From assembly GCA_963741905.1 (NCBI GenBank), contig CAVUJZ010000027.1, forward strand, positions 15,769 to 79,768: a stretch of DNA of 64,000 nt, given 5' to 3'. Origin of the DNA: an uncultured Acidobacteriota bacterium (GTDB lineage: Bacteria > Acidobacteriota > Thermoanaerobaculia > Gp7-AA8 > CAVUJZ01). Positions within the stretch are counted from its first letter, which is position 1. Each line of letters opens with the position of its first letter. The translations under genes and the position numbers were made by a program. Below, piece by piece: positions 139 through 63,955 of the stretch. The notes under the pieces are model-generated. The model worked only from the letters and a program-made list of their open reading frames with translations, did not search any database and had not been told where the DNA came from.

Positions 139-1281
139 TCAGTTCCTTTCAGTGAACGTTTCGTCGACCGGTCGCAGGTCGCGGGTTTGTTGCCTGAACG
201 GGGTGGAAGTGCGGACGCTCCAGGTGCCGTCCCCCTCCGGGGTGATGAAGACGGCTTCGACGTCATGGGCATCGGCCCAGCGGAGACCCGCCTCCGGACC
301 CATGACATAGAGCGCGGTGGAGAGAATGTCGGCCTCCAGCGCACTCGATCGAATCACCGACACCGAGCCGCGTGGCGGCAGTGCGAGGCCGGTTCGTGGG
401 TCGAGAATGTGCGAGAAGGTGCGCCCTTGAACGGTGAAGTGGTGTTCCGATCCCGAGGTGGTGGCGATCGACCCGGCATTCAGGGTCAATCGCAGAGCCG
501 GTTGCGTCCGAGCTTCCGGATTGGCGATGGCGATCTCGATCGGCGCGGGGAAGCCGGAAAGTGCGATCTGTCCGCCGAAGTCGACCATCGCCGCACCGAC
601 TCCGGCGGCGCGCAGACTCTTCAACGCCTGGTCGATCGCATATCCCTTTCCGAATCCTCCCTCTTCGAATCCGGCGCCCGGATCGAGACGGATCGAGTGG
701 CTCTTCGGAAAGAAGTCGATGCGGTTGACCCGCAACAGAGGACGGACTTCTTCGATCTCGAGCGGGCCCGGATAGCGCCCTGCGCCGCGGACCTTCCAGA
801 TCCGGACGAGCGGAGCGACGAGCGGGTTGAATGCACCGTCGGTGCGATCGCTCCAGCCGACCGCTTCCAGGAGGAGATCGAACAGTTCGGGAGGGACCGT
901 CACGGGCTCGCCGGAGCGGTCTGCATTCAGCCGCGCGAGATCGCTTTCATCCTTCCACGTGGAGAGAAGCGATTCGATCCGTGTGATCTGGTCGAAGGTG
1001 GAAGGGATCGTTCCGGCATCCTCGGTTGGAACGCTGATGGTACAGATGGTTCCCATCAAGTACTCCGCGCGGGAGGTGAGCTCCGGTGCGGGGGTCGGGG
1101 CTTGCCGGGATTCGATGGACGGCCCGGAAGGGGAGGGTGGGATGCTGGCGGCGCAGCCGGCGAAGAGCAGGATGACGAGCAGGGCGGAGCCGAAGGTTCG
1201 TGAGCGGATCCATGGATGAGAGTCTAATTGAGACAGCGTCTCAATTAGCGGGACGATAAGCTTCCAGCCTGAGGGTCTCAC
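139..1281 (-). CDS. apbE: FAD:protein FMN transferase (ApbE family lipoprotein); start uncertain
   Basis: Motifs LMGT, GAFNPLV, GGFGKGYAID, HILDPRTG, ADILSTAL; lipobox-like LFAGC. The ATG at 1213 is out of frame, so the true start is unclear. Confidence 0.9.
   Translation of the reverse strand: MRPSGWKLIVPLIETLSQLDSHPWIRSRTFGSALLVILLFAGCAASIPPSPSGPSIESRQAPTPAPELTSRAEYLMGTICTISVPTEDAGTIPSTFDQITRIESLLSTWKDESDLARLNADRSGEPVTVPPELFDLLLEAVGWSDRTDGAFNPLVAPLVRIWKVRGAGRYPGPLEIEEVRPLLRVNRIDFFPKSHSIRLDPGAGFEEGGFGKGYAIDQALKSLRAAGVGAAMVDFGGQIALSGFPAPIEIAIANPEARTQPALRLTLNAGSIATTSGSEHHFTVQGRTFSHILDPRTGLALPPRGSVSVIRSSALEADILSTALYVMGPEAGLRWADAHDVEAVFITPEGDGTWSVRTSTPFRQQTRDLRPVDETFTERN
1224..1248. promoter_or_regulatory. 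Putative Fur box (perfect 11-3-11 inverted repeat)
   Basis: CTAATTGAGAC-AGC-GTCTCAATTAG; near-identical copy upstream of fur; TGA-N9-TCA spacing as in Fur boxes. Confidence 0.7.
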
Positions 1282-4905: not shown

Positions 4906-6408
4906 GTCGTCCCGAGCGGGAGGGCGGGTGGGCATGCGAGGGACCTCGCCCGATGCGAAAAGGACCGTTCTGCTGGACAACCGTCCCCCGACGCGTCTGC
5001 GCCCGGAGGTCCCTTCTCGCATCGGCAGAGATGTCTCACATGCCCACCCGCCCTCCCGTTCGACATGACAATGGCCGGCAGCGGGTCGAGAAAAACCGGG
5101 ATGCATCGAGGCAGCCGTGACGGGAGGATCGATGGAGCGAAACCACTGATTCCCTCGCCGAACCGACTCGCCGTTGTCGTCCCGAGCGGGAGGGCGGAAG
5201 GGCATGCGAGGGACCTCCCCCGATGCGAAAAGGACCGTTCTGCTGGACAACCGTCCCCCGACGCGTCTGCGCCCGGAGGTCCCTTCTCGCATCGGCAGAG
5301 ATGTCTCACATGCCCACCCGCCCTCCCGTTCGACATGACAATGGCCGGCAGCGGGTCGAGAAAAACCGGGATGCATCGAGGCAGCCGTGACGGGAGGATC
5401 GATGGAGCGAAACCACTGATTCCCTCGCCGAACCGACTCGCCCCTGTCGTCCCGAGCGGGAGGGCGGGTGGGCATGCGAGGGACCCCCCGATGCGAAAAG
5501 GATCGTTCTGCTGGACAACCGTCCCCCGACGCGTCTGCGCCCGGAGGTCCCTTCTCGCATCGGCAGAGATGTCTCACATGCCCACCCGCCCTCCCGTTCG
5601 ACATGACAATGGCCGGCAGCGGGTCGAGAAAAACCGGGATGCATCGAGGCAGCCGTGACGGGAGGATCGATGGAGCGAAACCACTGATTCCCTCGCCGAA
5701 CCGACTCGCCCCTGTCGTCCCGAGCGGGAGGGCGGGTGGGCATGCGAGGGACCTCCCCGATGCGAAAAGGATCGTTCTGCTGGACAACCGTCCCCCGACG
5801 CGTCTGCGCCCGGAGGTCCCTTCTCGCATCGGCAGAGATGTCTCACATGCCCACCCGCCCTCCCGTTCGACATGACAATGGCCGGCAGCGGGTCGAGAAA
5901 AACCGGGATGCATCGAGGCAGCCGTGACGGGAGGATCGATGGAGCGAAACCACTGATTCCCTCGCCGAACCGACTCGCCCCTGTCGTCCCGAGCGGGAGG
6001 GCGGGTGGGCATGCGAGGGACCTCGCCCGATGCGAAAAGGACCGTTCTGCTGGACAACCGTCCCCCGACGCGTCTGCGCCCGGAGGTTCGTTGTCGCATC
6101 GGCAGAGATGTCTCACATGCGCACCCGCCCTCCCGTTCGACATGACAATGGCCGGCAGCGGGTCGAGAAAAACCGGGATGCATCGAGGCAGCCGTGACGG
6201 GAGGATCGATGGAGCGAAACCACTGATTCCCTCGCCGAACCGACTCGCCATCGTCGTCCCGAGCGGGAGGGCGGAAGGGCATGCGAGGGACCTCCCCCGA
6301 TGCGAAAAGGACCGTTCTGCTGGACAACCGTCCCCCGCGACGCCTCTGCGCCCGGAGGTTCGTTGTCGCATCGGAGGAGATGTCCTGCATGCCCACCCGC
6401 CGCTCGAC
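4906..6408. repeat. Tandem array of ~270-bp units (about 5.5 copies), each with a long imperfect inverted repeat (REP/BIME-like)
   Basis: GTCGTCCCGAGCGGGAGGGCGG recurs at 4906, 5176, 5446, 5714, 5983 and 6253; units nearly identical. Confidence 0.95.
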
Positions 6409-7336: not shown

Positions 7337-10300
7337 TCAGGCGGGTTCCGCGGGTGCCTTCGTGCGGAGGAATCGCTGGAGGAGCAGCGCGACAATGGCG
7401 AGGGAGAAGGCCAGACCGATGAGTGAGCCAACGCGATAGAGACCGCCCAGCCGCATCAGATCGTGCAGAAACCCCTTCAGCACCGAAACGAGGAGCAGCG
7501 CGATCGCCGCCATGCGTGCACCGCGACTTCCTCCGATGAGGCCGGCGACCAGCATGCCGATCGCGAATACTGCCCAGGCGAGGGTGTAGGTCAGGTCCTG
7601 CGCGAGGCCGGCGGAAAAGTTGAAGGTGAGCGACCGCCCCGTCGAGTAGAAGTCGGCAATCTCGATGTTGACCAGAAGAAACAGGAGCACCGTCCCTCCG
7701 CTGACCAGCAGGGGCGAAAGCTGGCGCCATGCGTCCTCCAGATGCGGAAGAAGTCTGGCCCCGGCAAAATATGCCGCCGCCGCAACCAGGTAGGCGTACA
7801 GGTACCAGTTCAGGATCGGAGTCGCGCTTCGGGGGTGATAGTCGAACACCGCCGGATTGAGAGACAGTCGGATGAACGCCACCCCGAACAGCGCGGAAGA
7901 CCAGACGAGCAGCCCCCGATGGGGGACCCGGCGGAAGAGCCAGATCAGTGCGGCGCCTTCGAGGGCCCACCCGAGAGTGATCCATTCACGGTCGAATTGA
8001 AGCGGGACCGCGACAGTGACGAACGCGAGGATCGTACCCGCCACCATGGCCAGCCGTCCGGTCTGGCGCTCTCCCCGGGGCTCGAGCTTCAGCAGGCGAA
8101 TCAGAAGAACCGAGGTCACTGCCGCCTCAATCACCGGCAGCAGACCGATGAATGAGTCCAGGCCGCGCACCAGCATCCCGGTTCGCGCGTAGAAGAACAG
8201 GGGAACCCCGGCAAGGACGCCGGCGAGCCACGGCTCGAACGTCCTCTTCGCCCGGTCACCCAGAACCAGCGGGTATCCGAGGAAGAGAAGCCACGTGATG
8301 CCGCCGAGAATCATCTCGAACAGCCAGGTTCCGGGGTGGTACCCGAGGCCTCGAGCGAGGAAGACGACGGCAAAGGAAGAGACCACGGCGAGGACTGCCG
8401 CCAAGTGACGATCCTCGATCGCGCAGATGGAGAGAATCGCGATGACCAGCCCGCCGTGAATGAGGGCGAGCAATGCAGAGCCCGGGGCGCCTGCCTGCGT
8501 GACCGCGAACATCAGGACGAACTGTGCCCCGAACAGGGCAATCAGCGCCGGGACGCGAAATGCGGTCTGGCTGCCGAACCGACGTCGTGCAAATGCGAAC
8601 GCCAGCAATCCCATCGCGGCCAGAGCCGCGGCCGCGGAGATTGCAACCGAGGGCCAGGGAGCGCCGCCCGACATGCTCACCCAGATGATCAGGACAAAGT
8701 GTCCTGCACCGAGAGCGAGGGCCATCAAACCTCCGTCGCCCGATCGCACCGCCTGGACGGTGATCGCCAGAGCGATCACCCCCAGCGCGACCAGCCACGG
8801 CCACGGGGGAATCGACAGACTGGGGCTGCCGGCGATCGCGAGGAGGAAGAGGTTGCTGATCAAGGCGAGCCAGGACGGCCCTGAAACCGCGGTCGATTCA
8901 GCTCTCTCGCGACTGAGCCACCCGTAGGCCACGACCACCATCACCGCAAACAGCACCAGAGAGACCAGCGCGCCGATGCGAAGCTCCTCGAGGTTTTCGG
9001 CGGCGATCCACCAGCCGCCCAGGACCATCCAGGAGATGAACGTCCCGATCGGAGCGAGCGCCGGCCGCCGGCTGTGCCTCGCCTCCCGGGCCATGGCCAG
9101 GTTCAGCCCGAGCAGAAGCGCGGTCAGGCCGGGAAGCGCCGCCCGCGGATCCGGACCGGTCGCCAGGACGAAGAGGACGAAGATTCCGAGGAACAGCATC
9201 GGGAGGCCGGACTGCCCGACTTCCGAGTCCGGCTTCCAACGTCGCACCGCCATCGGAACGGCCGCGAGAATGACGCCGAAGGCGGCATAGACGATGACCG
9301 CATCGATCACCCGGTCCGCGGTGAGATGTTCCACCGACCAGACTGCCTCCGCGATCAGCGTCAGGACGGCTCCAACCATCCACGCGGTGGGTGCGTCTTC
9401 GATCGCGGCAGCGAATCCCACCAGAAGGAGAAGGACGGCGAGGACGGAAAAAAGGAGGACCGGCGCCGCGGTCAACGGTTCCAGCAGCGCGAGAGCCGCG
9501 AACATGAACAGCAGAACCGGCGCACCGAAGACCGCCTTTTCCGAACCGCCCACGAGGGGACGTCGCAGCCGCCGTGCGACCGTCGGGGCAAGAGAATAAA
9601 GAAGGACGAATCCTGCGATCCAGACGAGGATCGAAGGCCACGCATCGTGCCGATAGCCGATTGCGGACCAGATGACGAAGGTGAAGGTGGTGGAGAGCGC
9701 GCCGAGCGGATGAAGCAGTCGCGGTCCCCGCGCCGAGGCTGCGATCACCGCGAGACCGATGTCGATCGCCAGCAGGAAGCTGAACAGAAGGCCTCGATGT
9801 GCGGCATAGCCGGGAACCGCCGCGAGATAGAAGGCGAAGCTCAGGGGAACGACCGCGGCGAGGGCGGCGGTGCGTCCGAAAAGCGAGCGCCGGCTCTGCT
9901 CACCTTCTCCCGTGGAGATCCAGAACGAGGCAATCGTCACCAGCGGGAAGATCAGGAAAATGCCGATTGCCAGGCTCACGCTCGACTCGTCGAGGAAGCG
10001 CGCCACCCAACCCCACTGGTAGAGCGTCGTGAAGACCAGAGTGAGGACCGAGAGCATCGGCCAGCGCTTCCGGTACGCGACCCAGGCGAGACCGGCGTTG
10101 AGGATCAGCAGATACCCGAACAGGGTCACCGGGCGGTCCTGCCCGGTCGACAGGAGCGCCGGTGTGGCGAAGCCGCCGAGCAGGCCGAGAAGCGCCATGA
10201 ATACCGAATCGCGCCGGATCGACAGGAACACTGCCAGACCGGTCACTCCGGCCATCAGCGCGAATCCGAGCGCGGCCGGAATCAGATTCCAGAGAGCATG

Positions 10301-11017
10301 CGAGGCGAAGAGTGTCGCGTACAGGATGGCGATCCCGGAGCCGTCCATCGCGTTCGCGGTGGTGCGATAACCGCTGGCGAAACGCATCTCGCAGACCACG
10401 ACAAGTCCCACTCCGCCCACCAGGCCGAGAACCATCCGGACCATCGGACTGAGCAGTCCAGCCTCGAACGAGTACTTCAGAAAGAAGATCGCGGCGAGTG
10501 CGAGAGCCACCCCGGCAATCCAGGAGAAGAGCCGAACCCCGACGAAGTTCTCCCAGTCGATCCCGCGAACCCGGTCGGTGAACGATGGGCCGGCCTCCTG
10601 ATGGAAAGGAGCGGCGGGTCGAGAGCTGGGGAAGGGTGGCTCGGGCGCAGGCGGTGGTGTTGGTGCGGGAAGGGGCGCTGCCGGTTCGAGCGGTGGCGCG
10701 ACGGGGGCCGCCGGAGGCGGGGTCACCACCGGAGGCGGGGCGAATGCCGACTGGGCCGCCGGCTCGTGCCTGGTGGGTGGCTGCGGCTCCGTAGGAGGAG
10801 CCTCGGTTGCCATCGCCCCCTCGGTGGAAGAACGGCGGGGAGCTGCCATCTCCCGGATCTTCTCCGCGAGTTTCTGGTTCGCCGCGATCAGCCGCGTGAT
10901 CTCGGATTCCAGCGAGCTCACGCGCCCCTGCAACGAGAGGGTGAGGATCAGCGCGACCACGCTCACTGCCCCGGACGCCAGCACTACCAGCGCCACCAGG
11001 CACGACAGATCGTCCAT
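7337..11017 (-). CDS. Large polytopic membrane protein (DUF2339-like)
   Basis: N-terminal TM + coiled coil + Pro-rich linker, WENFVGVRLFSWIAG, LGLLGGFATP, C-terminal LYRVGSLIGL; many TM helices. Confidence 0.85.
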   Translation of the reverse strand: MDDLSCLVALVVLASGAVSVVALILTLSLQGRVSSLESEITRLIAANQKLAEKIREMAAPRRSSTEGAMATEAPPTEPQPPTRHEPAAQSAFAPPPVVTPPPAAPVAPPLEPAAPLPAPTPPPAPEPPFPSSRPAAPFHQEAGPSFTDRVRGIDWENFVGVRLFSWIAGVALALAAIFFLKYSFEAGLLSPMVRMVLGLVGGVGLVVVCEMRFASGYRTTANAMDGSGIAILYATLFASHALWNLIPAALGFALMAGVTGLAVFLSIRRDSVFMALLGLLGGFATPALLSTGQDRPVTLFGYLLILNAGLAWVAYRKRWPMLSVLTLVFTTLYQWGWVARFLDESSVSLAIGIFLIFPLVTIASFWISTGEGEQSRRSLFGRTAALAAVVPLSFAFYLAAVPGYAAHRGLLFSFLLAIDIGLAVIAASARGPRLLHPLGALSTTFTFVIWSAIGYRHDAWPSILVWIAGFVLLYSLAPTVARRLRRPLVGGSEKAVFGAPVLLFMFAALALLEPLTAAPVLLFSVLAVLLLLVGFAAAIEDAPTAWMVGAVLTLIAEAVWSVEHLTADRVIDAVIVYAAFGVILAAVPMAVRRWKPDSEVGQSGLPMLFLGIFVLFVLATGPDPRAALPGLTALLLGLNLAMAREARHSRRPALAPIGTFISWMVLGGWWIAAENLEELRIGALVSLVLFAVMVVVAYGWLSRERAESTAVSGPSWLALISNLFLLAIAGSPSLSIPPWPWLVALGVIALAITVQAVRSGDGGLMALALGAGHFVLIIWVSMSGGAPWPSVAISAAAALAAMGLLAFAFARRRFGSQTAFRVPALIALFGAQFVLMFAVTQAGAPGSALLALIHGGLVIAILSICAIEDRHLAAVLAVVSSFAVVFLARGLGYHPGTWLFEMILGGITWLLFLGYPLVLGDRAKRTFEPWLAGVLAGVPLFFYARTGMLVRGLDSFIGLLPVIEAAVTSVLLIRLLKLEPRGERQTGRLAMVAGTILAFVTVAVPLQFDREWITLGWALEGAALIWLFRRVPHRGLLVWSSALFGVAFIRLSLNPAVFDYHPRSATPILNWYLYAYLVAAAAYFAGARLLPHLEDAWRQLSPLLVSGGTVLLFLLVNIEIADFYSTGRSLTFNFSAGLAQDLTYTLAWAVFAIGMLVAGLIGGSRGARMAAIALLLVSVLKGFLHDLMRLGGLYRVGSLIGLAFSLAIVALLLQRFLRTKAPAEPA

Positions 11018-11150
11018 CAGAGCCGATGGTAGCGGAAAGGGGGAGGAAAGGCGAAGAGCACCGTCGAGTCGTGCCGCGGAGCCTTGATGTCCCCGCGGCA
11101 CAACCCCGGACTCAGCGGTCGCTGCGGCGATTGTTTCGGCCGCTCGGGTT

Positions 11151-11453
11151 CTACGGCTGGATGGTGATGTGATCCACCACGCGCTTCACGCCGTTGACGT
11201 GAGAGGCGGCAGTCAGAATCTGCTGTTTCTGGGTCGCATTCGCCGCGTGACCCTGCAGGGTGACCACGCCATTGTCGACGTTGATTTCCACCGCAAAGGT
11301 CTTCTCCGGAACCTCGGAGGCGATCGCCGCACGGACATCCGCTTCCATCGCAGCGTTGTCGACATTCGAGGGGGTTTGCCGGTTCATCGAGCATCGGGCT
11401 CCGATCAGGAGCAGCATCATCGCCAGGGACACCATTGCCACATTTCGTTTCAT
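11151..11453 (-). CDS. BON-domain (OsmY-like) lipoprotein
   Basis: Signal peptide with Cys; INVDNGVVTLQG...VNGVKRVVDHI; RBS AGGAGG. Confidence 0.85.
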   Translation of the reverse strand: MKRNVAMVSLAMMLLLIGARCSMNRQTPSNVDNAAMEADVRAAIASEVPEKTFAVEINVDNGVVTLQGHAANATQKQQILTAASHVNGVKRVVDHITIQP

Positions 11454-11528
11454 CGATTCCTCCTATCCGTTCGTCAAGAAAACACGGTATGGACAGGTGC
11501 GGAGAGCAAAAGCCGAGCCCGGAACGGC

Positions 11529-11858
11529 GGTGAGACGGTGAGAGGTGAGACGGTGAGAGGTGAGACGGTGAGAGGTGAGACGGTGAGAGGTGAGACGGTG
11601 AGAGGTGAGACGGTGAGAGGTGAGACGGTGAGAGGTGAGACGGTGAGAGGTGAGACGGTGAGAGGTGAGACGGTGAGAGGTGAGACGGTGAGAGGTGAGA
11701 CGGTGAGAGGTGAGACGGTGAGAGGTGAGACGGTGAGAGGTGAGACGGTGAGAGGTGAGACGGTGAGAGGTGAGACGGTGAGAGGTGAGACGGTGAGAGG
11801 TGAGACGGTGAGAGGTGAGACGGTGAGAGGTGAGACGGTGAGAGGTGAGACGGTGAGA
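11529..11858 (+). repeat. Perfect tandem repeat (GGTGAGACGGTGAGA) x22
   Basis: Read directly; the 15-bp unit is built from the GGTGAGA heptamer. Confidence 0.97.
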
Positions 11859-11973
11859 GGTTGGCAACCCCGGAGGGTGGAAGCACCATTGGTGGGGTCG
11901 GGCCGCTGGCTCGATACCCGGCGGCGTCCGGTCGCGGAGGGCGCACTCCACCAGGCGGAAGAGGCCTGGAGTG

Positions 11974-13149
11974 TCAGTTCGCCACCTTCACCTTCGCTCC
12001 GTCGCTCACGTCATTGCCGGGATGCGTAATCACCACGTCACCTTTCTTCAAACCGTCGGTCACCTCGGCGACCTCACTGTTCCGGTGGCCGATGCGGACG
12101 GTGCGCACGCGGGCGTGCCCCCCCTCGACGACGAAGACGTTCCAATCCTGCCCATTGCGAAACAGTGCACTGACCGGCACCCGGAGCACGTCGCCATTCT
12201 CCCAGACGACGATGCGTGCCTCGATCCGGTAGCCGTCTCCGAGCGAGGAGGGAGTCTGATCGAGATCGGCGATCACGTTCACCCGCTGTTCTTCAATGCC
12301 GAGCGCGGAAATTCTGGTGAATCCCGAGGGCTCCACCACCCGCACCTTGCCGTGCAGGGGCTGATCACCGCCCCAGTCGTCGACGATCACCGGATCGCCA
12401 GGGCTGATTTTCACCGCATCGGCGGAGAGCACTTCGATCACCAGTTCGATGTCGCTTGCATTGCTGACGATCAGAAGCGGCTCCCCCGCGGTGACCACCC
12501 GACGGCTCCGTTCCGGCACGCGAAGAACCTGACCTTCGACCGGGGAGTGCACCTCGATACTTCGGGCGACGCTGGTGGAACTTCGCAGGGAGAGAAGGCC
12601 GGCCCGGGCAACCTCGAGTTGTGCGGATGCGGTCTCCGCCCGGTGACGTGCCGCGGCGAGATCATCCCTGGCCGTCTGCTCGGCCGTTTTCGCCTGGTCC
12701 AGTGTCTCGGCCGACGCGATGCCCTCGGCGGCAAGCCTGGCGATCCGTTGGCGGTCCTTTCGCGCCAGCTCGAACGCCGCCTCCGCGCGCGAGACCATCG
12801 AGCGTGCTTCGCGCAGCGACGCTTCCGCGGCGTCCACCCCTCCGGTCACTTCCTCCTTCTGGCGGGGGTCCAGCTCGGGCGGGGTGATCTTCGCGACGAC
12901 GTCACCCTTCTGCACGCGGCTCCCTTCGCGAAGATCGATCCGGCCGACCTCTCCCGTGACCGGCGCCGTGATCACGAACCGGTCGCGCACGCGCGTCTCC
13001 CCCTTCTCGTCCACGGTCACGTTCATCGGTCCTCGAGAGACGGTAGCGGTCTCCACCGGGACCGGTTCGGGTAGGAAGGCGAAGACGAGAAGAACCACGA
13101 GCACCACACCCACCAGGAGATAGATCAGAGTACGGCGTTTGACCTTCAT
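11974..13149 (-). CDS. Efflux periplasmic adaptor (MFP/HlyD family)
   Basis: N-terminal TM, barrel-sandwich/coiled-coil layout, [19 protein letters not shown]. Confidence 0.92.
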
Positions 13150-13177
13150 GGGACAGGATCATCCTACCTGAAAAGAA

Positions 13178-13401
13178 GGTGAGAGGTGAGAGGTGAGAGG
13201 TGAGAGGTGAGAGGTGAGAGGTGAGAGGTGAGAGGTGAGAGGTGAGAGGTGAGAGGTGAGAGGTGAGAGGTGAGAGGTGAGAGGTGAGAGGTGAGAGGTG
13301 AGAGGTGAGAGGTGAGAGGTGAGGGGTGAGAGGGAGGTGAGAGGTGAGAGGTGAGAGGTGAGAGGTAGGAGAGGTGAGAGGTGAGACGTTGGAGGTTGGA
13401 G
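13178..13401 (+). repeat. Heptamer array (GGTGAGA) x20 perfect plus a degenerate tail
   Basis: Perfect from 13178 to 13317, degenerate to 13401. Confidence 0.97.
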
Positions 13402-13425
13402 GGTGACAACGGGGTGTCCGGAGAC

Positions 13426-13854
13426 TCACCACTGCGTTTCATCGAGATCGTCGACGGGCGACTCTCGGATCTGCAAAGACTCCGAACAGAAGAGCTCGGC
13501 CTTGGATCGCATCGATCCGAGCATTCGACCGACCGAGAGCAGTTGCTGGGTGAGACGTTCGAATGACTCCACATCGAGGTACTGGCATTGCCTCGCCACG
13601 CGCAACCAGTGCCGGGTCTCCCGCTGCTCTCCATCAGCATCCGTCAGTTTCGACACGAAATGTCTCACGTACATCCGCTTGGCCCACGCTTCTGCGATCT
13701 GGGCACCGACCGATCGGGATGATCTTCGGATCTGATCGGTCAGGGAGTATCTCTCTTCCGGTGGGAAGGCTTTGGATAGTTCGAAAATCTCGGACCAGAC
13801 CTCCTCAGCCCTCCTGTACACCTCCAGATCCGTGAAATCATTCACATGCTCCAT
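13426..13854 (-). CDS. Four helix bundle protein (23S rRNA IVS-protein/Avd-like family)
   Basis: [41 protein letters not shown] motifs. Confidence 0.92.
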
Positions 13855-13904
13855 CTTCGCCCCCCTTGAAAAAGCACCTTAGCAGCACCAATCAACCGAT
13901 CGTT

Positions 13905-14090
13905 CTCCAACCTCCTACTCAACCTCTCACCTCTCACCTTCTCACCTCTCACCTCTCACCTTCTCACCTCTCAACCTCTCACCTCTCACCTTCTCACCTC
14001 TCACCTTCTCACCTTCTCACCTTCTCACCTTCTCAACCTCTCAACCTCTCACCTCTCACCTCTCACCCTTCTCACCTTCTCACCCCTCAC
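13905..14090 (-). repeat. Degenerate heptamer/octamer array (TCTCACC on +), inverted relative to 13178-13401
   Basis: CTCTCAC/CTTCTCAC/CTCTCAAC units; begins at the permease stop codon. Confidence 0.93.
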
Positions 14091-16459
14091 TCTCTCGTCT
14101 TCAGGACCTCGACGAGGTCGAGGGTGCGGATCCGCCGGTAGATCAACAGGCCCGAAAGGACTGCCGAGAGAACGATCACTCCGAAGCCGAAACCGTAGGT
14201 CTTCGCGGTGATGATCACCGGAAGGCGGTAGAGCTCCGAGGCGATGGCCCTGGCGATGACCGCGGAAAGGCCGTAGCCGAGAACGAAGCCGAACGGAATT
14301 GCGGCGAGGGTGAGGATCGCCTGTTCGCCCAGGAGCATGCCGGCGACCTCGCGTCGGGTGAAGCCGAGCACCCGAAGACTGGCGAGCTCGCGTCCGCGCT
14401 CGGAAAGGGCGATACGTGCGCTGTTGTAGACCATCCCCGCGGCGATGATGCAGGCGAAAAAGATGATCATGAAGGTGGAGATGTAGAGGCTCTCGGCGAT
14501 GGTCTGTTCGAAGCTCTGAAGCATCGCCTCCCGGAGCGTCACCCCGGCAATTGCCGGCATCCGCTTCAGCCGTTCGTAAAGCTGCTGCCGGTGAAGTGCG
14601 TCGACCTGGAGCAGAGCACCGGTCATGGTCATCGGCTCGTCGAGCATCCTGGCGACTGCACGGCGGTCCATGTACGCGGAAATTCCGATCAGTTCCTGGA
14701 CCACCTCGGCGACCGGGACCTCGACGACAGGCCGCGCGCCCTCCAGCACTTCGACCGTCACGAGATCTCCCGGTCCCGCATGGAGGAGTCTCGCCAGCTC
14801 GTCATTCAGCACGATTCCCTGGGACGGGATCTGAACGGTCTGGCCCCCGGCCTCCACCAGCCGTCGGAGATCCGATCCGGGTTCCATCGCGAAGATCCCC
14901 ACCCGGCGGCTGAAATGCTCGTGGCGGAGCCGCACCGGCACGGTTCGGAACGGCTCGACCTTCATCACGCCCGGCAGATGGGCCAGGGCGAACTTCGTCG
15001 ATTCCTGGTGAGGCTCGTAGAGCGCCACCGAGAGGTCTTCCCTCTGGATCTGGTGGAACTGGAGATCCATGATGAAATCCATGGCGTCGAACATGTAGCC
15101 GCCGACCACCAGGATCGCGGTGGCCAGAGCGATCCCGAGGATGGAGAAGAAGGCCTTCATTTTGCGGCGTGCCAGATTGCGGACGATGATCCGGCCGGGA
15201 GCGGAGAGGAAACGGAAGAGGCCGAGCCGCTCGATGATTCCCGGCTCGAAGCGTGGCGGCGGCTCCGGACGCATCGCCTCGGCCGGGGGCAGGCTGATCG
15301 CACCTCGCACCGCCCACAGCGCACCCACCGAGGCGGCCAGCGCGCTGACTCCCATGCCTCCCAGCACCAGAATGGGATTGACCTCGAATCGCAGGACCGG
15401 GAGCTGAAAGAAATCGGTGTACATGCGCGCCAGCCCATGCGCCAACCAGGTGCCGGTGGGAAGCCCGAGCAGACTTCCCGCTGCGACGATCACCAGCGCG
15501 AACTCCAGAAAATGCATGCCGATGCGCCCGTTGGAGTAGCCGAACGCCTTGAGGATCGCGATCTGGTCCCGCTGGGTCTGGACCAGGCGGGTCAGAACGA
15601 TGTGAATCAGAAAGGCGGCCACGCCGAGAAAGATCGCCGGCAGAACGATTCCGGTGACCCGGTCTCCCTTGATCTCGTTCGTCAGGTACTGGTTGGAGAC
15701 CTGCTCGTCGCGCCCGTACGCGCCGGTTCCTCCGTAGGGGCGGAGCAGACGGTCGAGATGAGCGATCACCGCGGCCTGAGTCACACCCGGCGCGAGGGAC
15801 ATGGAAACATCGTTGAACGCGCCATGCATGTCGTAGGCGTACCCCAGCGCTTCCCGGCTCATCCACAGTACGCCGAAGCGCTTCTTGTCCGGGAACAGAT
15901 CGGATGGCCGGATCTCGTAGACGTACTCCGGCGACATTCCGATCCCGACGATTTGCAGCGAGCGCCAGCGGCCATTGATGATCGCGCCGATCGAGTCGCC
16001 GAGATTCAGATCATTGCCGGTGGCGAACGACTCGCTGACGATCGCCTCATCCGGATGCCCGGCGTCGATCCAGCGGCCCCGGCGGAGAAACAGGTCGTTC
16101 AGGATCGGCGTTCGACGTTCGGGGATGGAGATCAACCGGCCCGTGGCCGGCTCGGTGAGATCGGGAACGTCGAGCGTCACGTCGACGACCACCCGGGTGC
16201 GGACTTCGGCGACTCCCGGGATGGCCGCGATCTTCGTTCGCAGCGACTCCGGGGCGCGTTTGGCCTGCGCGAACACGTCCGCGAACCGGAACTCGCGGTA
16301 GTACGAACGCTGCGACTCCTCCAGTGAACGATAAGCCGTCCACATGGTGATCAGCATGGCCAGCCCGCAGGCGACCACCAGCGCAACGGCGATGGCCTGA
16401 CCGCGCAGGTGAACCAGATCCCGGAACAGCTTTCGATCGAGCGAGCGCATCCGCATCAC
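14087..16459 (-). CDS. ABC transporter permease (duplicated MacB/FtsX type)
   Basis: [48 protein letters not shown]. Confidence 0.93.
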
Positions 16460-17178
16460 CAGGTGATCTCACCGGGAGAGACCTTCTTCTCATTGACGGT
16501 CGTCTCGGTGATCCGTCCGGAGCGCATCCGCAGGACGCGATCGGCCATTGCCGCGATCGCCGCGTTGTGGGTGATCACGGCGGTGGTCGTGCCGAGCTCG
16601 CGGTTGACCCGCTCGATCACCTCCAGCACGATCTTGCCGGTGGTGTAGTCGAGCGCCCCGGTCGGCTCGTCGCAGAGCAGGACGTCGGGGCGTTTGGCGA
16701 TGGCGCGGGCGATCGCGACCCGCTGCTGCTCGCCGCCCGACATCTGCGCGGGGAAGTGATCGACCCGTTCGCTCGAGTCCGACCAGCTCCGAGCGCCTCG
16801 CGCGGGTCCATCGGATGGCGGGCGATCTCGGTGACCAGCGCGACGTTCTCCCGCGCGGTCAGGCTGGGGATCAGGTTGTAGAACTGGAAGACGAAGCCGA
16901 CGTGCTCGCGGCGGTAGCGGGTCAGGGCCCGGTCGTCGTCGCGCGGTGAGGTCGTGGTCGCGGTAGACCACGTCGCCGGAGGTCGGCACGTCGAGGCCGC
17001 CGAGGATGTTGAGCAGCGTCGACTTGCCGCTGCCGGAAGCGCCGAGCAGGACGACCAGCTCCCCCTCGAACAGCTCCAGGTCGACCCCTCGAAGCGCATG
17101 CACCTCGACCTCGCCCATCCGGTAGATCTTCGTGATCCCACGGGCGCGAAACACCGGCTCCCGAGACACGAGTGCCAT
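16456..17178 (-). CDS. ABC transporter ATP-binding protein (LolD/MacB type) with two compensating frameshifts
   Basis: [28 protein letters not shown]; the segment [21 protein letters not shown] lies in another frame (~16790-16945). Confidence 0.9.
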
Positions 17179-17510
17179 TGTACGGGAAGGCGGAGCGCAG
17201 AACGCAGAAGGGAATAACGAAGAGGGAGCAATTCTTCCCGGTACGACTCCCCTCTCCCCGCGCAGAATGATGATTCGAAGCGAGAAGGGCGAAGCGGGGC
17301 GGGGGCCGGGGGTGCGGGGCAACCATCCCCCCGCGATTCCGTGTGGCTCGATTCGCGACGGCTGCCCCGGAGCGTTCTCCGCTCGCCGTTGCCGACGCTG
17401 CGTCGCGGACGCCCCGATGCGGATGCCCGCCGGCACGGGCGGCCGCGGGAGGCTCGGCTCCTGTGCGGCTCGCTTTTCGAGTCGCTGACGCACCGGAAGT
17501 CGCCCGTCCC

Positions 17511-17944
17511 CTATCGCCCGGGATGTTCGGTAAATAGCGTCCGGCGGAGAAGTTCCGGGTGCAGAACGTCGAAGTCCTTGTCCGTTGTCACGAGATGCGC
17601 ATCGATGGCCGCGGAAGTCGCAGCGATCCACAGGTCATTGTCGCTGAGAGCCTTTCCGACCGATCTCGTCCAGGAGTGAAAGTGCCCGAAGTTCTCCAGA
17701 ATCGGGCGGCGGTCGATCGGCACGACCACCAGTTCCCTCAGGAGAGCTTCCAACGCTTGCTTCTTCGGCTCGCCCCACCCGAAGCTCCGGCGAGAGACAG
17801 ACATTCTCCGATCGTCACCACTGAAATGAGAGGGCGTTCTGGCCGATGACGGATCTGGAATCTTGCATCGATTCGCCGCGCAATCTCGTTGTCACGAATG
17901 AGGTGGATGACGACGCCTGTGTCGAGAACCAGAGGCTCGCTCAC
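17511..17944 (-). CDS. PIN-domain (VapC-like) nuclease, frameshifted near 17790
   Basis: VLDTGV and ISVVTIGE in one frame; [10 protein letters not shown]...LVTTDKDF in the next. Confidence 0.8.
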
Positions 17945-18880
17945 GACAGCTCCGCGATGGCCGAGGCGAGCTCGTCGTCGCTTTCATCGCCGGGCCACTG
18001 ACCGATGATCGCATTGACTCCCGATCGCGGACCCTGGGGCTGCCGTAACTCCGCCGTCTCCATGACCTGGAACACGGGTACGGGGAGATGGGACCAGATT
18101 TCGACAGTTCCTTCCGCTAATTCGATCGATTCCGCCTCCAGTCTCAGCAGTCTGCCGGACGGGCGAAATACTGCCGTTCCGGAGACGACCACCATGGTCC
18201 CGAACAGGCTCGCGAGTTGTCCGGCTGCCACGCCCTCGGCAATGCCCTTGACGGAGGAGCCTTCATCGAGGAGGAGAGTGAACATGCGATCGCTGTGACG
18301 GATCGTGTCGAGGGTTCCGGCCACTCGGGCGCGCTGCGGAGGAGGCGTACTCACCCTCAGGCGCTCGACCGACTCGACCGCAGCGAGATCGATCTCCACC
18401 GGTAAGCTCGAATCCTGGCCATTCGTCAGCTCAATGGACGAGAAGCCGAATGACAAGGACTCCCGGAAGCGATGAAAGACCGCGAGCAACCCCTGGTCGA
18501 GTAGCTCGGAGTCGGTTCGGCCGGCGATGGCTTCGGTCAGGCTCTGGCGCATCAGGTCGACCGCGGAATCCTCCGGCGAGATCGGATGGAAGAGACTCTG
18601 TTGCCGAAATTGATCCGGGGCCGCGTCGGCAAGGATCGGCGCCTCCATGACCAGGACGGTGCTTCCCTCTTCGATCGCGACGAGATCGAAATCGGCCGCC
18701 TGGCTCAGCCATCCCGGCAAGGAGCCGCGAGCCGTACTTCGCCCTTCGACGCGCAACCGCGTCGCACCACGAGTCGCATCGAGAAGCACGTTGCTCAACT
18801 CGCGCAACACACTGGCGGCAACGCGCGCCCCGCGCGCCTGCTCACCTCTCAGCCGGATTCGATAACGTTTCGTGGGATCA
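17941..18880 (-). CDS. Hypothetical ~310-aa protein coupled to the PIN gene (candidate antitoxin/partner); start uncertain
   Basis: ORF 17941..18810; the frame stays open to ~18880 near a GGAGG but has no clear start codon; ATGA overlap with the PIN start. Confidence 0.65.
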
Positions 18881-60673: not shown

Positions 60674-60781
60674 TCCTGGGCAATGGTATGCCCTCCCCGC
60701 CTTTTGCGGAATCCCGGAGCCCATCGCAGCTCGAACCGCGAAGTGGGCGGAGGGGGCCGGAACAGACAGAGCTTGTCCACT

Positions 60782-61830
60782 GGGGCGAAGTGGGCGGACT
60801 TTGTCTCGGATGCCGCGATGTGGGTGGTACTGGCGAGGTGGGTCGTGCATCCGGGACAAGTTCGGCGTGCGCAGAGTTTCCCCACTGGGGCAAGTGGGCG
60901 GACTTTGTCTCGGATGCCGCGATGTGGACGGTACTGGGGAGGCGGGTGGTGCATCCGGGACAAGTTCGGCATGCGCAGAGGTTGGCTCACGCGCAGTCGA
61001 GGAGCCAGGGGAGGCGCGAGATTGCGACGCGGCGCTCCGAGGGTCGGATGTCGCGGGTGTCGGCTGCCGGGAGCCGAACTTGTCCGTCCCGGCCACGACC
61101 GGCGCGTCGAGGAGCATCCGGGGCGCGGGCCGGTTCGCCCACAAGGGGGGCCGGAACGGACTGGGGCAAGTGGGCGGACTTTGTCTCGGATGCCGCGATG
61201 TGGGTGGTACTGGGGAGGCGGGTGGTGCATCCGGGACAAGTTCGGCATGCGCAGAGGCTGGCTCACGCGCAGTCGAGGAGCCAGGCGAGGGGCGAGATTG
61301 CGACGCGGCGCTCCGAGGGTCGGATGTTGCGGGTGTCGCCTGCCTGGAGCCGAACTTGTCCGTCCCGGCCACGACCGGCCAGTCAAGGAGCACCCGCGCC
61401 GCGGGCCGGAACGGACAAAGTCCGCCCACAAGGGGGGCCGGAACGGACTGGGACAAGTGGGCGGACTTTGTCTCGGATGCCGCGATGTGGACGGTACTGG
61501 CGAGGCGGGTGGTGCATCCGGGACAAGTTCGGCATGCGCAAAGGATGGGTCTCGCGCAGTCGAGGAATCGAGGCGGAGAGAGGTGGGTCGCAGAGTCGAC
61601 CGCGCTCCGAGGGTCGGGATGTTTCGCGGAGCGTGCATCTGCCGGGAGCCGAACTTGTCTGTTCCGGCCAGGACCGGTCAGGCGAGGAGCACCCGAGCCG
61701 CGCGCCGGAACAGACAAAGTCCGCCCACATGGGCCGGACGACTGGACAAGTGGGCGGACTTTGTCTCGGATGCCGCGATGTGGGTGGTACTGGGGAGGCG
61801 GGGGGTGCATCCGGGACAAGTTCGGCGTGG
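60782..61830. repeat. Palindromic REP/REPIN-like tandem array (~280-290-bp units plus partial units)
   Basis: GTGGGCGGACTTTGTCTCGGATGCC at 60790, 60894, 61170, 61457, 61750; inverted partners GCATCCGGGACAAG and GACAAAGTCCGCCCAC; a variant copy at 63978. Confidence 0.92.
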
Positions 61831-62082
61831 CGAAAAAGGATGGGTCTTGACGCTGCCGAGGATCGAAGGGGGAACGGTGGGGAGTCGATGGTGAATCGAC
61901 CGCGCCGCGGTTGGGTCTCGGGAGTAGAGGGATCCAGGCCGGAATCATCCCGCCGTCGGCACGCCGCGCGCTTCGCGCTTGCCGCGCGGGAGGTTTGTCG
62001 AGGTTTCATGGGCTGCGCAGGAATCCCTTTTCTCCTGGGTTGGAACCGCGGCGCGGGAGCGGGCGTGGGAACGCCCGCTCCA

Positions 62083-63955
62083 GTGCGCTCGGGAGCGCAC
62101 CTGAAGAGGAGGGTGAGAGTCCCTCCCGACCAGCCGCTCACTGGTCGAGAACCAAAGGTAACTGCGTCGCCGCGAGGCGGGGTGGAGAGCAACTGGAGGA
62201 GAACTACCGGTCCGTACGAGAGAAACTCGATTCGGCATTCATGACTGGCGAGGCTGCTGGGCATGTCGAAGCCCGAAGACCCGGTGGGCGCAGACGGGAA
62301 ACGGCCCTAAGGGAGAGCTCCGGCGCTGAGGGAAAGAGCGTGAAGAGAAAGCGACCGAGAGAGTCATGGGTGTGGTTGGAGACAGAACGGTAGGAAGTTC
62401 AGGTGCTGTGAACCGGGGATCCCCCATCCCGGCGGATGACCGTGGATGGGAAGTCAGAGCCCTCATAGGAGCTGAGAAGCGCCGCAATGGGCGTGGAGCA
62501 AAGGGGGGCAGGAAGGTGAATGCGTGAAGGAAAGACAACAGCAAGACCAACCGCGAGCAGTGGGAGACCTAGAGCGCGGCGGAGAGATCCGGGGCCGATG
62601 GCCGTGGGTCAAAGCCGGAGTCTGGACCGAGCGCATGCTGGAAGCCCTCGAAAGGGGGGTCAAAGGAGGCAAATGGCACAGTCTGATTGACAAAGTGCAT
62701 CGAGACGAGAATCTGCTGCTGGCATGGCAGGAGGTGAAGAAGCGAAAAGGTTGCGGCGGGGTCGACAGGATGTCGCTGTGCCAGTTCGAACATCACCTCG
62801 GTCAACGGCTGGAGAAACTCTCGAGCCAGATCCGAGAGGGAAGCTACGAGCCACAGCCGGTCCTGCGGAAGTACATTCCCAAGGACGGAGGCCGGGGTCG
62901 CAGGCCTTTGGGGATCCCGACGATAGGAGACCGCGTGGTGCAGGCGGCCCTGCGAAATGTGATCGAACCGATCTTCGAGAGAAAGTTCACCGACCAGAGC
63001 TATGGGTTCCGCCCCGGGCGAGGATGCAAAGACGCCCTGCGGGAGGTCGCCCGCCTGCTCTCGGAAGGCCATACGTGGGTGGTCGATGTCGACATCAAGT
63101 CGTACTTCGACACGATCCCTCATGAGGAGCTGATCAACGAGATCGCCGAAGAGGTCGCAGACGGCAGGGTGCTGGCGCTGATCCGCGGGTTCCTCAGTCA
63201 GGGAGTCCTCGAAGGAATGCACCAATGGCAGCCGGAGACGGGAACTCCGCAGGGAGCGGTCATCAGTCCTCTGCTGGCGAACATCTATCTGCATCCTGTG
63301 GACGTGATCGTCCGCGATGCAGACTTCAAGATGATCCGCTACGCTGACGATATGGTGATCCTCTGCCGGACCCGCGAAGAGGCGGAGAAGGCACTGGGAG
63401 TACTGAGGCAGGCCCTCGAGGAAAGGCAACTCGAACTGCATCCGGAGAAGACGGGTCTGGTCGATGCCACAGCAAGACCAGGGTTCCAGTTCCTGGGATA
63501 CATCTTCTTCGGGAACAAGCGCTATCCGAGGGAACCGAGCGTGAAGAAGCTTCGCCGCGCCATCAAGGAGCGGACGAAGCGGAACCGATCGGATGATCTC
63601 GACACGATCATACGCGATGTCAATTCGGTCCTGAGAGGCTGGTTCGAATACTTCAAACACAGCTCACGTGGAGCCTTCGTGGAACTCGACCAGTATGTTC
63701 GGCGTCGCCTTCGGGCGATTCTGAGCAAGCGAAAGTTCCGCCGGGCACATCACCGAAACTGTGGGCGAGGCTACGACCACTTTCGATGGCCGAACGCCTT
63801 CTTTGCCGATCGCAATCTGTTCATCCTTCATACAGAACATGCGATCGTCCGACGGTCCCGTGCAGGGTAACTCACCAACTGGAGAGCCGGATGCGGGAGA
63901 TCCGCACGTCCGGTTCGGAGGGAGGGGCGGAGTGATCCTCCGTCCCTACCCCTAT
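62083..63955 (+). mobile_element. Group II intron (not IIC; probably bacterial class E)
   Basis: 5' GTGCG; domain V GAGAGCCGGATGCG...CGCACGTCCGGTTCGG with AGC triad; domain VI ending ACCCCTAT; encodes an RT. Confidence 0.92.
62524..63870 (+). CDS. ltrA: Group II intron reverse transcriptase/maturase with no endonuclease domain
   Basis: RPLGIPTIGDR, SYGFRPGR, DIKSYFD, GTPQGAVISPLLAN, RYADD, FLGY, LRGWFEYF, WPNAFF. Confidence 0.96.
   Translation: MKERQQQDQPRAVGDLERGGEIRGRWPWVKAGVWTERMLEALERGVKGGKWHSLIDKVHRDENLLLAWQEVKKRKGCGGVDRMSLCQFEHHLGQRLEKLSSQIREGSYEPQPVLRKYIPKDGGRGRRPLGIPTIGDRVVQAALRNVIEPIFERKFTDQSYGFRPGRGCKDALREVARLLSEGHTWVVDVDIKSYFDTIPHEELINEIAEEVADGRVLALIRGFLSQGVLEGMHQWQPETGTPQGAVISPLLANIYLHPVDVIVRDADFKMIRYADDMVILCRTREEAEKALGVLRQALEERQLELHPEKTGLVDATARPGFQFLGYIFFGNKRYPREPSVKKLRRAIKERTKRNRSDDLDTIIRDVNSVLRGWFEYFKHSSRGAFVELDQYVRRRLRAILSKRKFRRAHHRNCGRGYDHFRWPNAFFADRNLFILHTEHAIVRRSRAG

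Follow-up and report, generated by a model that had tools for sequence, protein, structure and literature searches.

A PF05635 four-helix-bundle gene between expanded inverted heptamer arrays in an acidobacterial efflux operon: a candidate cassette of the rRNA intervening-sequence type

An excess of 7-base repeats in bacterial genomes has long been noted, and we know of no explanation for the intergenic heptamer repeats of Xanthomonas, cyanobacteria and Beggiatoa; nor, to our knowledge, has a function been found in 30 years for the S23p open reading frame (ORF) of rRNA intervening sequences (IVSs). Both puzzles bear on the subject of this study, a 64,000-nt stretch of the genome of an uncultured Acidobacteriota bacterium (contig CAVUJZ010000027.1, positions 15,769 to 79,768; the window, herein, is the whole of this stretch), in which a 142-aa gene of the PF05635 (S23p) family lies between two long inverted arrays of a tandem heptamer (the arms; gene and arms together form the cassette) and is wedged in the sense direction into a MacAB-type efflux operon, after the stop codon of the permease gene and before the start codon of the membrane-fusion protein (MFP) gene. 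We favor, at a probability of roughly 0.55, the reading that this locus is an IVS-type cassette co-transcribed with the operon, and a copy, hyper-expanded in its arms, of a small cassette that is widespread.

The IVS of the Coxiella burnetii 23S rRNA measures 428 nt (PMC4990558). It carries an S23p ORF and ends in a stem of 28 bp, its tandem GACAGAT heptamers differ in copy number among strains, and RNase III cuts at the first repeat; ORF-bearing IVSs are cited in the same source for Leptospira and Brucella as well. The window cassette shares with the 23S rRNA IVS a S23p/PF05635 ORF in the sense orientation of the host transcript, terminal inverted repeats that would form a stem and, in the case of Coxiella, the heptamers. 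It differs in lying between protein-coding genes of an efflux operon and not in an rRNA helix (no rRNA was found in the window by Rfam at gathering thresholds), and in having arms of 175-210 nt as against about 28-35 nt in rRNA IVSs; in addition, its heptamer is dispersed at about 50 other sites of the genome, and excision, which is known for rRNA IVSs, is only inferred here. What is of a known kind is thus the plan of an ORF-bearing IVS, and what is new at this locus is the operon-internal site and the hyper-expansion of the arms.

Other described systems share individual features with the cassette. In two respects the cassette recalls the REP/REPIN repeats that Bertels and Rainey reportedly described in 2011 together with their RAYT gene: its gene is resident between inverted copies of the repeat that the same genome also holds dispersed and without the gene, and armed PF05635 genes are present at orthologous sites across species. 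However, the window gene encodes a small four-helix bundle and not a Y1/HUH tyrosine transposase, and the repeat is a tandem heptamer array that varies by locus and lineage and not a fixed palindrome. The cyanobacterial STRR heptamers form abundant, oriented intergenic arrays near gene ends. So do the TAACTGA repeats of Beggiatoaceae, but these are nearly all direct and upstream of start codons, with one inverted case, and the PF05635 gene goes unmentioned in the part of the source available (PMC4679880). The GGGAATC repeats of Xanthomonas and the GGGGA(C/T)T repeats of Nostoc, treated as G-quadruplex candidates by Rehm et al. (2015; PMC4692102), are likewise intergenic tandem heptamers, often in convergent pairs (70-75 reported) and kept in position between species. 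The terms "S23," "intervening sequence," and "four helix" do not occur in the main text of that paper (PMC4692102), and in the two Xanthomonas genomes examined here the same unit brackets the single PF05635 gene. The protein Avd of diversity-generating retroelements (DGRs; PDB 4dwl and the 8ub7 series) has the same four-helix-bundle fold, the five-chain structures 2gsc and 2rld being nearer relatives; in contrast to a DGR, no reverse-transcriptase match was obtained among the seven ORFs of 7337-18810 scanned against Pfam, template and variable repeats not having been searched for. The likeness of PF05635 to Avd has been noted (PMC10053308), as have, in passing, PF05635 genes wedged inside operons, between cmr3 and cmr2 (PMC3936711). 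A full-text literature search, outside whose scope lay most subscription journals, returned no description of the armed cassette as a class and no link between it and dispersed heptamers.

The evidence that carries the favored reading comes from the gene family at large. In the order to which the genome under study (G000) belongs, PF05635 genes occur in 41/41 genomes, G000 and 40 relatives (G-numbers below; L-numbers denote extracted loci), at 1 to 9 copies each in a tally that includes G034. At the 30 relatives' loci analyzed with Tandem Repeats Finder (TRF), most genes have short inverted period-7 arrays on both sides, and the heptamer is different at nearly every locus. We applied a strict rule, requiring on each side an array of period 6-9 with at least 3 copies within 300 nt and consensus units that are reverse-complementary within 1 mismatch, to these loci and to a diverse set of 80 loci from about 20 phyla, having dropped seven loci with short flanks (L005, L009, L012, L036, L049, L088, and L099) and left out the window's own. 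The rule was passed at 15/27 relatives' loci and 30/76 diverse loci, 45/103 in all, compared with 0/127 displaced pairs of control windows that have the same geometry and come from the same loci (single arrays occurred in 24/254 control windows); the period was 7 in 42 of the 45 positive loci and 8 in the other 3. The armed layout is a property of the PF05635 family and not a product of chance, and the expectation of an earlier note on this DNA, that homologous genes would be flanked by inverted 7-8-mer arrays, was borne out.

The window cassette follows the rules of the family in everything but size. Across 95 loci the gene is co-directional with both neighbors in 68 and opposed to both in 10 (neighbors were called by the longest open frame, a rough method), and the upstream arm has G>C in 31/45 of the strict-positive loci and G<C in 7/45; the window copy has the sense orientation, the G-rich upstream arm and arms that hug the ORF. 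Arms in the comparison set have a median of 4.45 copies and 32 nt, at least 20 copies being reached in only 2/90, whereas those of the window, at 23 and 30 copies, are about five times the usual length and outside the typical 4-6 copies. Among metagenome relatives of the window protein (31-63% identity), 28 had usable flanks, of which 11 had arrays on both sides and 7 had them inverted, with arms that reach 16-19 copies. In six relatives a PF05635 gene separates a macB-like ATPase gene from its permease gene, and at this site the heptamer is a different one in each of four species of one genus, with arms that match each other every time; the arms turn over rapidly but in step with each other.

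Several further features of the homologous loci were recorded. In about a dozen relatives' loci (L005, L008, L011-L013, L015, L022, L024, L025, L027, L029, and L031) the interval from the 5' arm to the ORF holds a conserved stretch (GAGGTAYACT-like, then CCCACAC...), some 60-130 nt ahead of the PF05635 start. The window's copy lacks this stretch, for which Rfam gives no match; it may represent a promoter of the cassette's own plus a leader. At L012 (G018:C66) the PF05635 frame, from position 1480, reads through the downstream array into a pyruvate-kinase-like gene for >600 aa; a gene fusion, loss of the stop codon or an error in the assembly could each account for this. Two armed copies in G022 (L143/L146 and L147/L148) each yield a pair of partial profile matches that overlap, as a frameshifted or decaying gene would, and the heptamer families of both are still abundant in that genome. 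Searching 16 homologous loci against Rfam gave only weak hairpin-like miRNA matches below threshold, and the upstream-arm repeat units showed no strand asymmetry in stop codons (sense 19/45, antisense 17/45).

The window protein is a member of the PF05635/S23p family with a four-helix-bundle fold, as the earlier note had proposed from the sequence when it related the 142-aa product to the IVS protein and to Avd. It matches PF05635 (23S_rRNA_IVP) at E 7.2e-30 and 103.8 bits (cut-off 33.8; profile positions 2-105 of 106) and, far less strongly, PF22296 (bAvd; 44 bits, cut-off 40), and these are its only Pfam matches. A phmmer search of PDB sequences returned 2gsc and 2rld only (E about 2e-7), for each of which five chains are deposited. 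The AlphaFold model has four helices (mean pLDDT 93.1), and Foldseek places Xcc0516 (2gsc; TM 0.93-0.94) first and BT_0352 (2rld; TM 0.80-0.87) second, followed by Avd (4dwl; TM 0.91) and DGR ribonucleoprotein entries. PMC4990558 gives Xcc0516 as a homopentamer. No nuclease or recombinase domain is recognizable in the protein by Pfam or Foldseek. The gene has a GC content of 56.6% and a GC3 of 0.69, below those of the four neighbors measured (GC 59-68%, GC3 0.74-0.83).

The layout of the locus, summarized in table 1, agrees closely with what the earlier note had read from the letters: the gene lies where it was placed between permease and MFP, the arrays on its two sides are reverse complements of each other, the 11-bp inverted pair at their inner ends is exact, the permease stop codon falls inside the right array, which the note has beginning at that codon, and the left array ends 27 nt (about 29 nt in the note) from the MFP start codon. 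All genes across 7.3-18.8 kb of the window lie on the minus strand by the ORF list and Pfam. In a predicted fold of the 961-nt minus-strand RNA, the two arrays pair into one long stem enclosing the gene, with a minimum free energy of -549.1 kcal/mol versus -379.6 +/- 11.5 for 20 shuffles (z = -14.7); this is not independent evidence, because two inverted arrays give such a result by construction. The duplex that the arms could form is about 175 bp. The array lengths (175, 210, and 333 nt) derive from one metagenome-assembled genome, a second assembly of the locus not having been found. Rfam gave no match for the cassette. The third array, which the earlier description lacked, is C-rich in the operon sense and could serve as an alternative to the 3' arm in pairing with the 5' arm. 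Three other identities for the arrays were considered and rejected: a CRISPR array, as the units abut with no spacers; a telomere-like addition, as there is no supporting gene; and a coding repeat, as a period of 7 does not keep the reading frame and the arrays are placed between stop and start codons.

Table 1. Features of the efflux operon, the cassette and their surroundings (positions in the window; 5' and 3' in operon sense)
Feature	Position	Strand	Basis and remarks
ABC-transporter ATPase gene, first in efflux operon	16456..17631	minus	Pfam ABC_tran, E 9.2e-26; 4-nt overlap with permease start
FtsX-type permease gene, 790 aa	14087..16459	minus	Pfam FtsX, E 4.3e-32; stop codon 14087-14089 within 5' arm
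5' arm, G-rich array, GGTGAGA/AGGTGAGA units mixed, ~23 copies	13922..14096	minus	TRF, period 8 x 23.0 (89% matches) or period 15 x 11.5
Leader of 67 nt, 5' arm to start codon	13855..13921	minus	Inner inverted-repeat half CTCCAACCTCC at 13905-13915 (+); purine-rich stretch before ATG
PF05635/S23p four-helix-bundle gene, 142 aa, ATG start	13426..13854	minus	ORF and Pfam
Trailer of 39 nt	13387..13425	minus	Inner inverted-repeat half GGAGGTTGGAG at 13391-13401 (+)
3' arm, C-rich (TCTCACC)n array	13177..13386	minus	TRF, period 7 x 30.1, 94% matches
HlyD-family MFP gene, 391 aa	11974..13149	minus	Pfam HlyD_3 and HlyD_D23
Third array, (GGTGAGACGGTGAGA) x 22.2, 100% perfect	11529..11861	plus (as read)	TRF; between MFP stop codon and BON-domain gene
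BON-domain gene	11151..11453	minus	Pfam
DUF2339 gene	7337..11101	minus	Pfam
Seventh scanned ORF	17941-18810		No Pfam family match

Elsewhere in the window, a 270-bp unit is repeated in 5.5 tandem copies at 97% identity (4906-6401), and pieces resembling it were seen by eye as cargo between inverted 7/8-mer arrays at four places in the genome (G000:C23:16139-16380, C17:204607-204850, C2:226140-226250, and C15:120690-120800). Two more tandem repeats lie at 60777-61843, one with a 104-bp unit in 2 copies and the other with a 276-bp unit in 3.4 copies (88-93% matches), and Rfam places a group II intron catalytic domain at 63882-63955 (+; 56.6 bits vs. a gathering score of 40), 50 kb from the cassette.

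The site without the cassette, which the earlier note suggested looking for in orthologous operons, is found in relatives. MFP orthologues (40-59% identity) are present in 5/40 of these genomes, together with permease orthologues of 48-62% identity, and in all five the permease lies just upstream of the MFP gene with no PF05635 gene between them. The two genes directly abut in two of the five and are separated in the others by a plain spacer of 130 nt, by a lone (GATGAAC) x 5 array, or by irregular repeats. Direct arrays without a gene, of (GATGAAC) x 5 in one case and of CATCGAGGAT-like units in the other, stand right after the permease stop at L113 (G004:C8) and L115 (G008:C4). Around this stop the genome under study and G004 have similar bases, so that the left edge of the insert is essentially the stop codon; in both genomes the sequence there resembles the repeat unit.

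A scan of 11400-14300 showed neither promoter-like nor terminator-like sites. We hypothesize that the cassette is transcribed together with the efflux operon and that, in the mRNA, its arms would pair into a long duplex to be cut by a double-strand RNase, much as RNase III acts on the heptamer stem of the Coxiella IVS; such a cut would release the RNA of the gene and part the upstream cistron from the downstream one. Co-transcription followed by duplex cutting as in rRNA IVSs is, on this analogy, a tentative proposal to which we give slightly less than even odds. That the pentameric protein itself acts on heptamer-repeat nucleic acid generally, on its own arms and on gene-less arrays alike, as RAYT would on REPINs, is a speculative and rather improbable extension.

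Several observations weigh against the IVS-type reading or against parts of it. The heptamer is common to only 5/86 protein pairs at >=50% identity, and this lack of covariation gives no support to the earlier suggestion that the protein binds the heptamer repeats sequence-specifically. Among mismatches between the arms, G-U pairs are not in excess over A-C pairs in the sense strand (33 vs. 25, with 1314 aligned positions forming Watson-Crick pairs), and most mismatches (77) are transversions; without a wobble signature, nothing marks arm pairing as a constraint at the RNA level, and pairing at the DNA level is equally possible. An RNase III domain (PF14622, PF00636) was not found in the genome under study and is present in 10/10 same-order relatives searched, which is weak evidence because the genome is only 78.7% complete; a genuine loss could be relevant to the great length of the duplex-forming arrays. 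The window protein also has four of eight nearly invariant residues replaced in a 26-sequence alignment (W13Y, Y24F, N52Q, and G56A). From the family motif R...S...N..E, given as GxxRxxxSxxxNxxE in PMC3936711, it keeps R44, S48, and E55, the hallmark N being Q52 and G56 being A, so that by its sequence it appears to be a somewhat divergent family member whose four replacements are conservative.

A further observation of this kind is that the arms are not private to the PF05635 gene. Exact GGTGAGA/TCTCACC heptamers form 53 clusters in the genome, 3 of them in the cassette locus and 50 at other sites that lack a PF05635 gene, some of which bracket other cargo, and this occurrence without the gene, one of the outcomes that the earlier note named as counting against its reading, contradicts the idea that the arrays are tied to the gene alone. 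The earlier reading of an IVS-like cassette therefore stands as to the IVS-type plan and the association of arms with the gene, but not as to the exclusivity of the arrays. Arrays in this genome reach 72 copies by TRF and include the related units GGCGAGA, GGTTAGA, and GGTTGGA and an unrelated 8-mer family; the growth of the cassette arms to 23-30 units parallels that of all GGTGAGA arrays here. Around a dozen further inverted pairs have 50-640 nt of other material between them (copies of the 270-bp repeat, a palindrome, an element of ~170 nt, and a fragment of a DUF559 gene), and nine such pairs searched against Rfam gave no match.

Two of these cargoes were characterized individually. The DUF559 endonuclease-domain fragment (E 2.2e-07; ORF 364-546, minus strand, of L167, G000:C33:2100-3100) lies inside a GGTGAGA/TCTCACC inverted pair, has an inverted repeat of its own on its flanks (GGGGAGAGGGG) and looks broken. 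The ~170-nt element (GGTAGCACCGGGTGACCGAAGGGAGCCCGG...), which has no match in Rfam, is present at two loci (L169, G000:C32:7800-8560, and L172, G000:C17:88900-89460), in one case within GGTGAGA-type arms and in the other within arms built from the unrelated 8-mer AGTTCTGG.

The dispersed arrays invite a reading at the DNA level on the model of REPIN/RAYT, in which the armed PF05635 gene would be the master copy and the gene-less arrays its derivatives or targets, which the protein maintains, spreads or expands and which have run away to 20-70 copies in this genome. Its attraction lies in a correspondence between the arms of the gene and the heptamer that dominates the genome, which ties the PF05635 gene and the dispersed repeats together. 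The only PF05635 gene found in the genome under study has arms of the dominant unit GGTGAGA, three tandem copies of which give 522 overlapping matches there and none in 38/40 same-order relatives. In a related genus, three genomes with 83-180 triple matches to AATGTTG (G010, G022, and G025) have a gene with matching arms at orthologous sites, whereas G018, with 2 triple matches, has none among the three examined of its four copies. Xanthomonas euroxanthea and X. arboricola, with 172 and 135 triple matches to GGGAATC, have one PF05635 gene each, with GGGAATC-type arms (L354 and L355; apparently between accB and accC, by eye), and Rhodanobacter, with 16 such matches, has an armed gene with a similar unit. 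A 400-kb sample of the complete genome G022 contains 72 arrays of period 7 or 8 (53 and 19, respectively), whereas period 6 is represented by 6 arrays and period 9 by 1. The 72 arrays include 17 pairs that are close together, inverted and without a gene, and in 8 of these pairs the unit is AATGTTG; the missing wobble signal and the many transversions between arms also fit pairing at the DNA level. However, the protein has no recognizable nuclease or recombinase domain, the armed genes stand at orthologous sites across species and so are not visibly mobile, and the correspondence has exceptions: G014, of the AATGTTG genus, has 121 triple matches and no clearly armed gene, and Moorena bouillonii has 1723 triple matches to GGGAATC, yet 0/7 of its family matches have exact GGGAATC arms, the closest unit being AGGGAAC. 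None of 80 GGGAATC arrays sampled across taxa lies within 700 nt of a PF05635-like ORF, as judged with a hidden Markov model built from acidobacterial sequences only that may be less sensitive elsewhere. The compared genomes are, moreover, relatives and not independent observations, and the co-occurrence fits either direction of action, because a gene that merely occupies a pre-existing hairpin of the commonest repeat family predicts the same. On balance we consider this DNA-level reading unlikely.

Two other accounts fare worse. Were the arrays slippage microsatellites that formed after stop codons, with the gene happening to lie between two of them, one would expect arrays throughout the genome, as observed, and a preference for gene ends: 21/60 strand-biased arrays begin, on their purine-rich strand, no more than 15 nt from the stop codon of an upstream gene in the same orientation (an approximate count, the crude GC3-based gene caller having missed genes including the PF05635 and ATPase genes). 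The gene-less direct arrays at the permease-MFP junction of two relatives, and the resemblance of the sequence around the permease stop to the repeat unit in the genome under study and in G004, point the same way. Such a coincidence is nevertheless already disfavored, and in our estimation highly improbable, given the family-wide association (45/103 vs. 0/127), the obedience of the window copy to the rules of the family and the same plan in the characterized rRNA IVS. It is about equally hard to credit that the cassette exists as an operon-internal regulator, its slippage-prone arms acting as a variable attenuator or insulator that sets the amount of MFP relative to permease and the third array offering an alternative pairing. 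The position of the cassette exactly between two cistrons, the two C-rich arrays (the 3' arm and the third array) that could compete for the one G-rich array and the variable heptamer copy number among Coxiella strains would all suit such a role, but the scan noted above showed no terminator-like site, and the cassette lies between unrelated gene pairs in many phyla; an operon-specific role is therefore unlikely as the reason for its existence.

We accordingly return to the IVS-type cassette as the favored reading of the window locus, and note a broader conjecture into which it could be drawn. PF05635 proteins and tandem heptamers might together form one two-part system, in which the armed gene is the resident and the gene-less arrays and hairpins are its products or substrates, the usual arm of about five units matching the five subunits of the protein ring; here the system would have run away to 20-70 units, possibly with the loss of RNase III. 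We regard this as improbable in its entirety. If it were true, it would explain why bacterial genomes are so rich in 7-base repeats, those of the Xanthomonas GGGAATC type among them, and rRNA intervening sequences would be just one landing place of the cassette.

The observations at hand link the two puzzles with which we began, the S23p ORF and the heptamer repeats, in that the armed family is present in many phyla, its arms are often of the dominant heptamer of the genome, and the classic IVS is built alike; the two reduce to a single question, namely whether the pentameric protein binds or processes heptamer-repeat RNA or DNA. For annotation, cassettes inside operons (the efflux operon here; accB-accC in Xanthomonas) may cut or insulate the transcripts of their hosts, and the window copy, with its extreme arm length, offers a good substrate for studying how arms grow.

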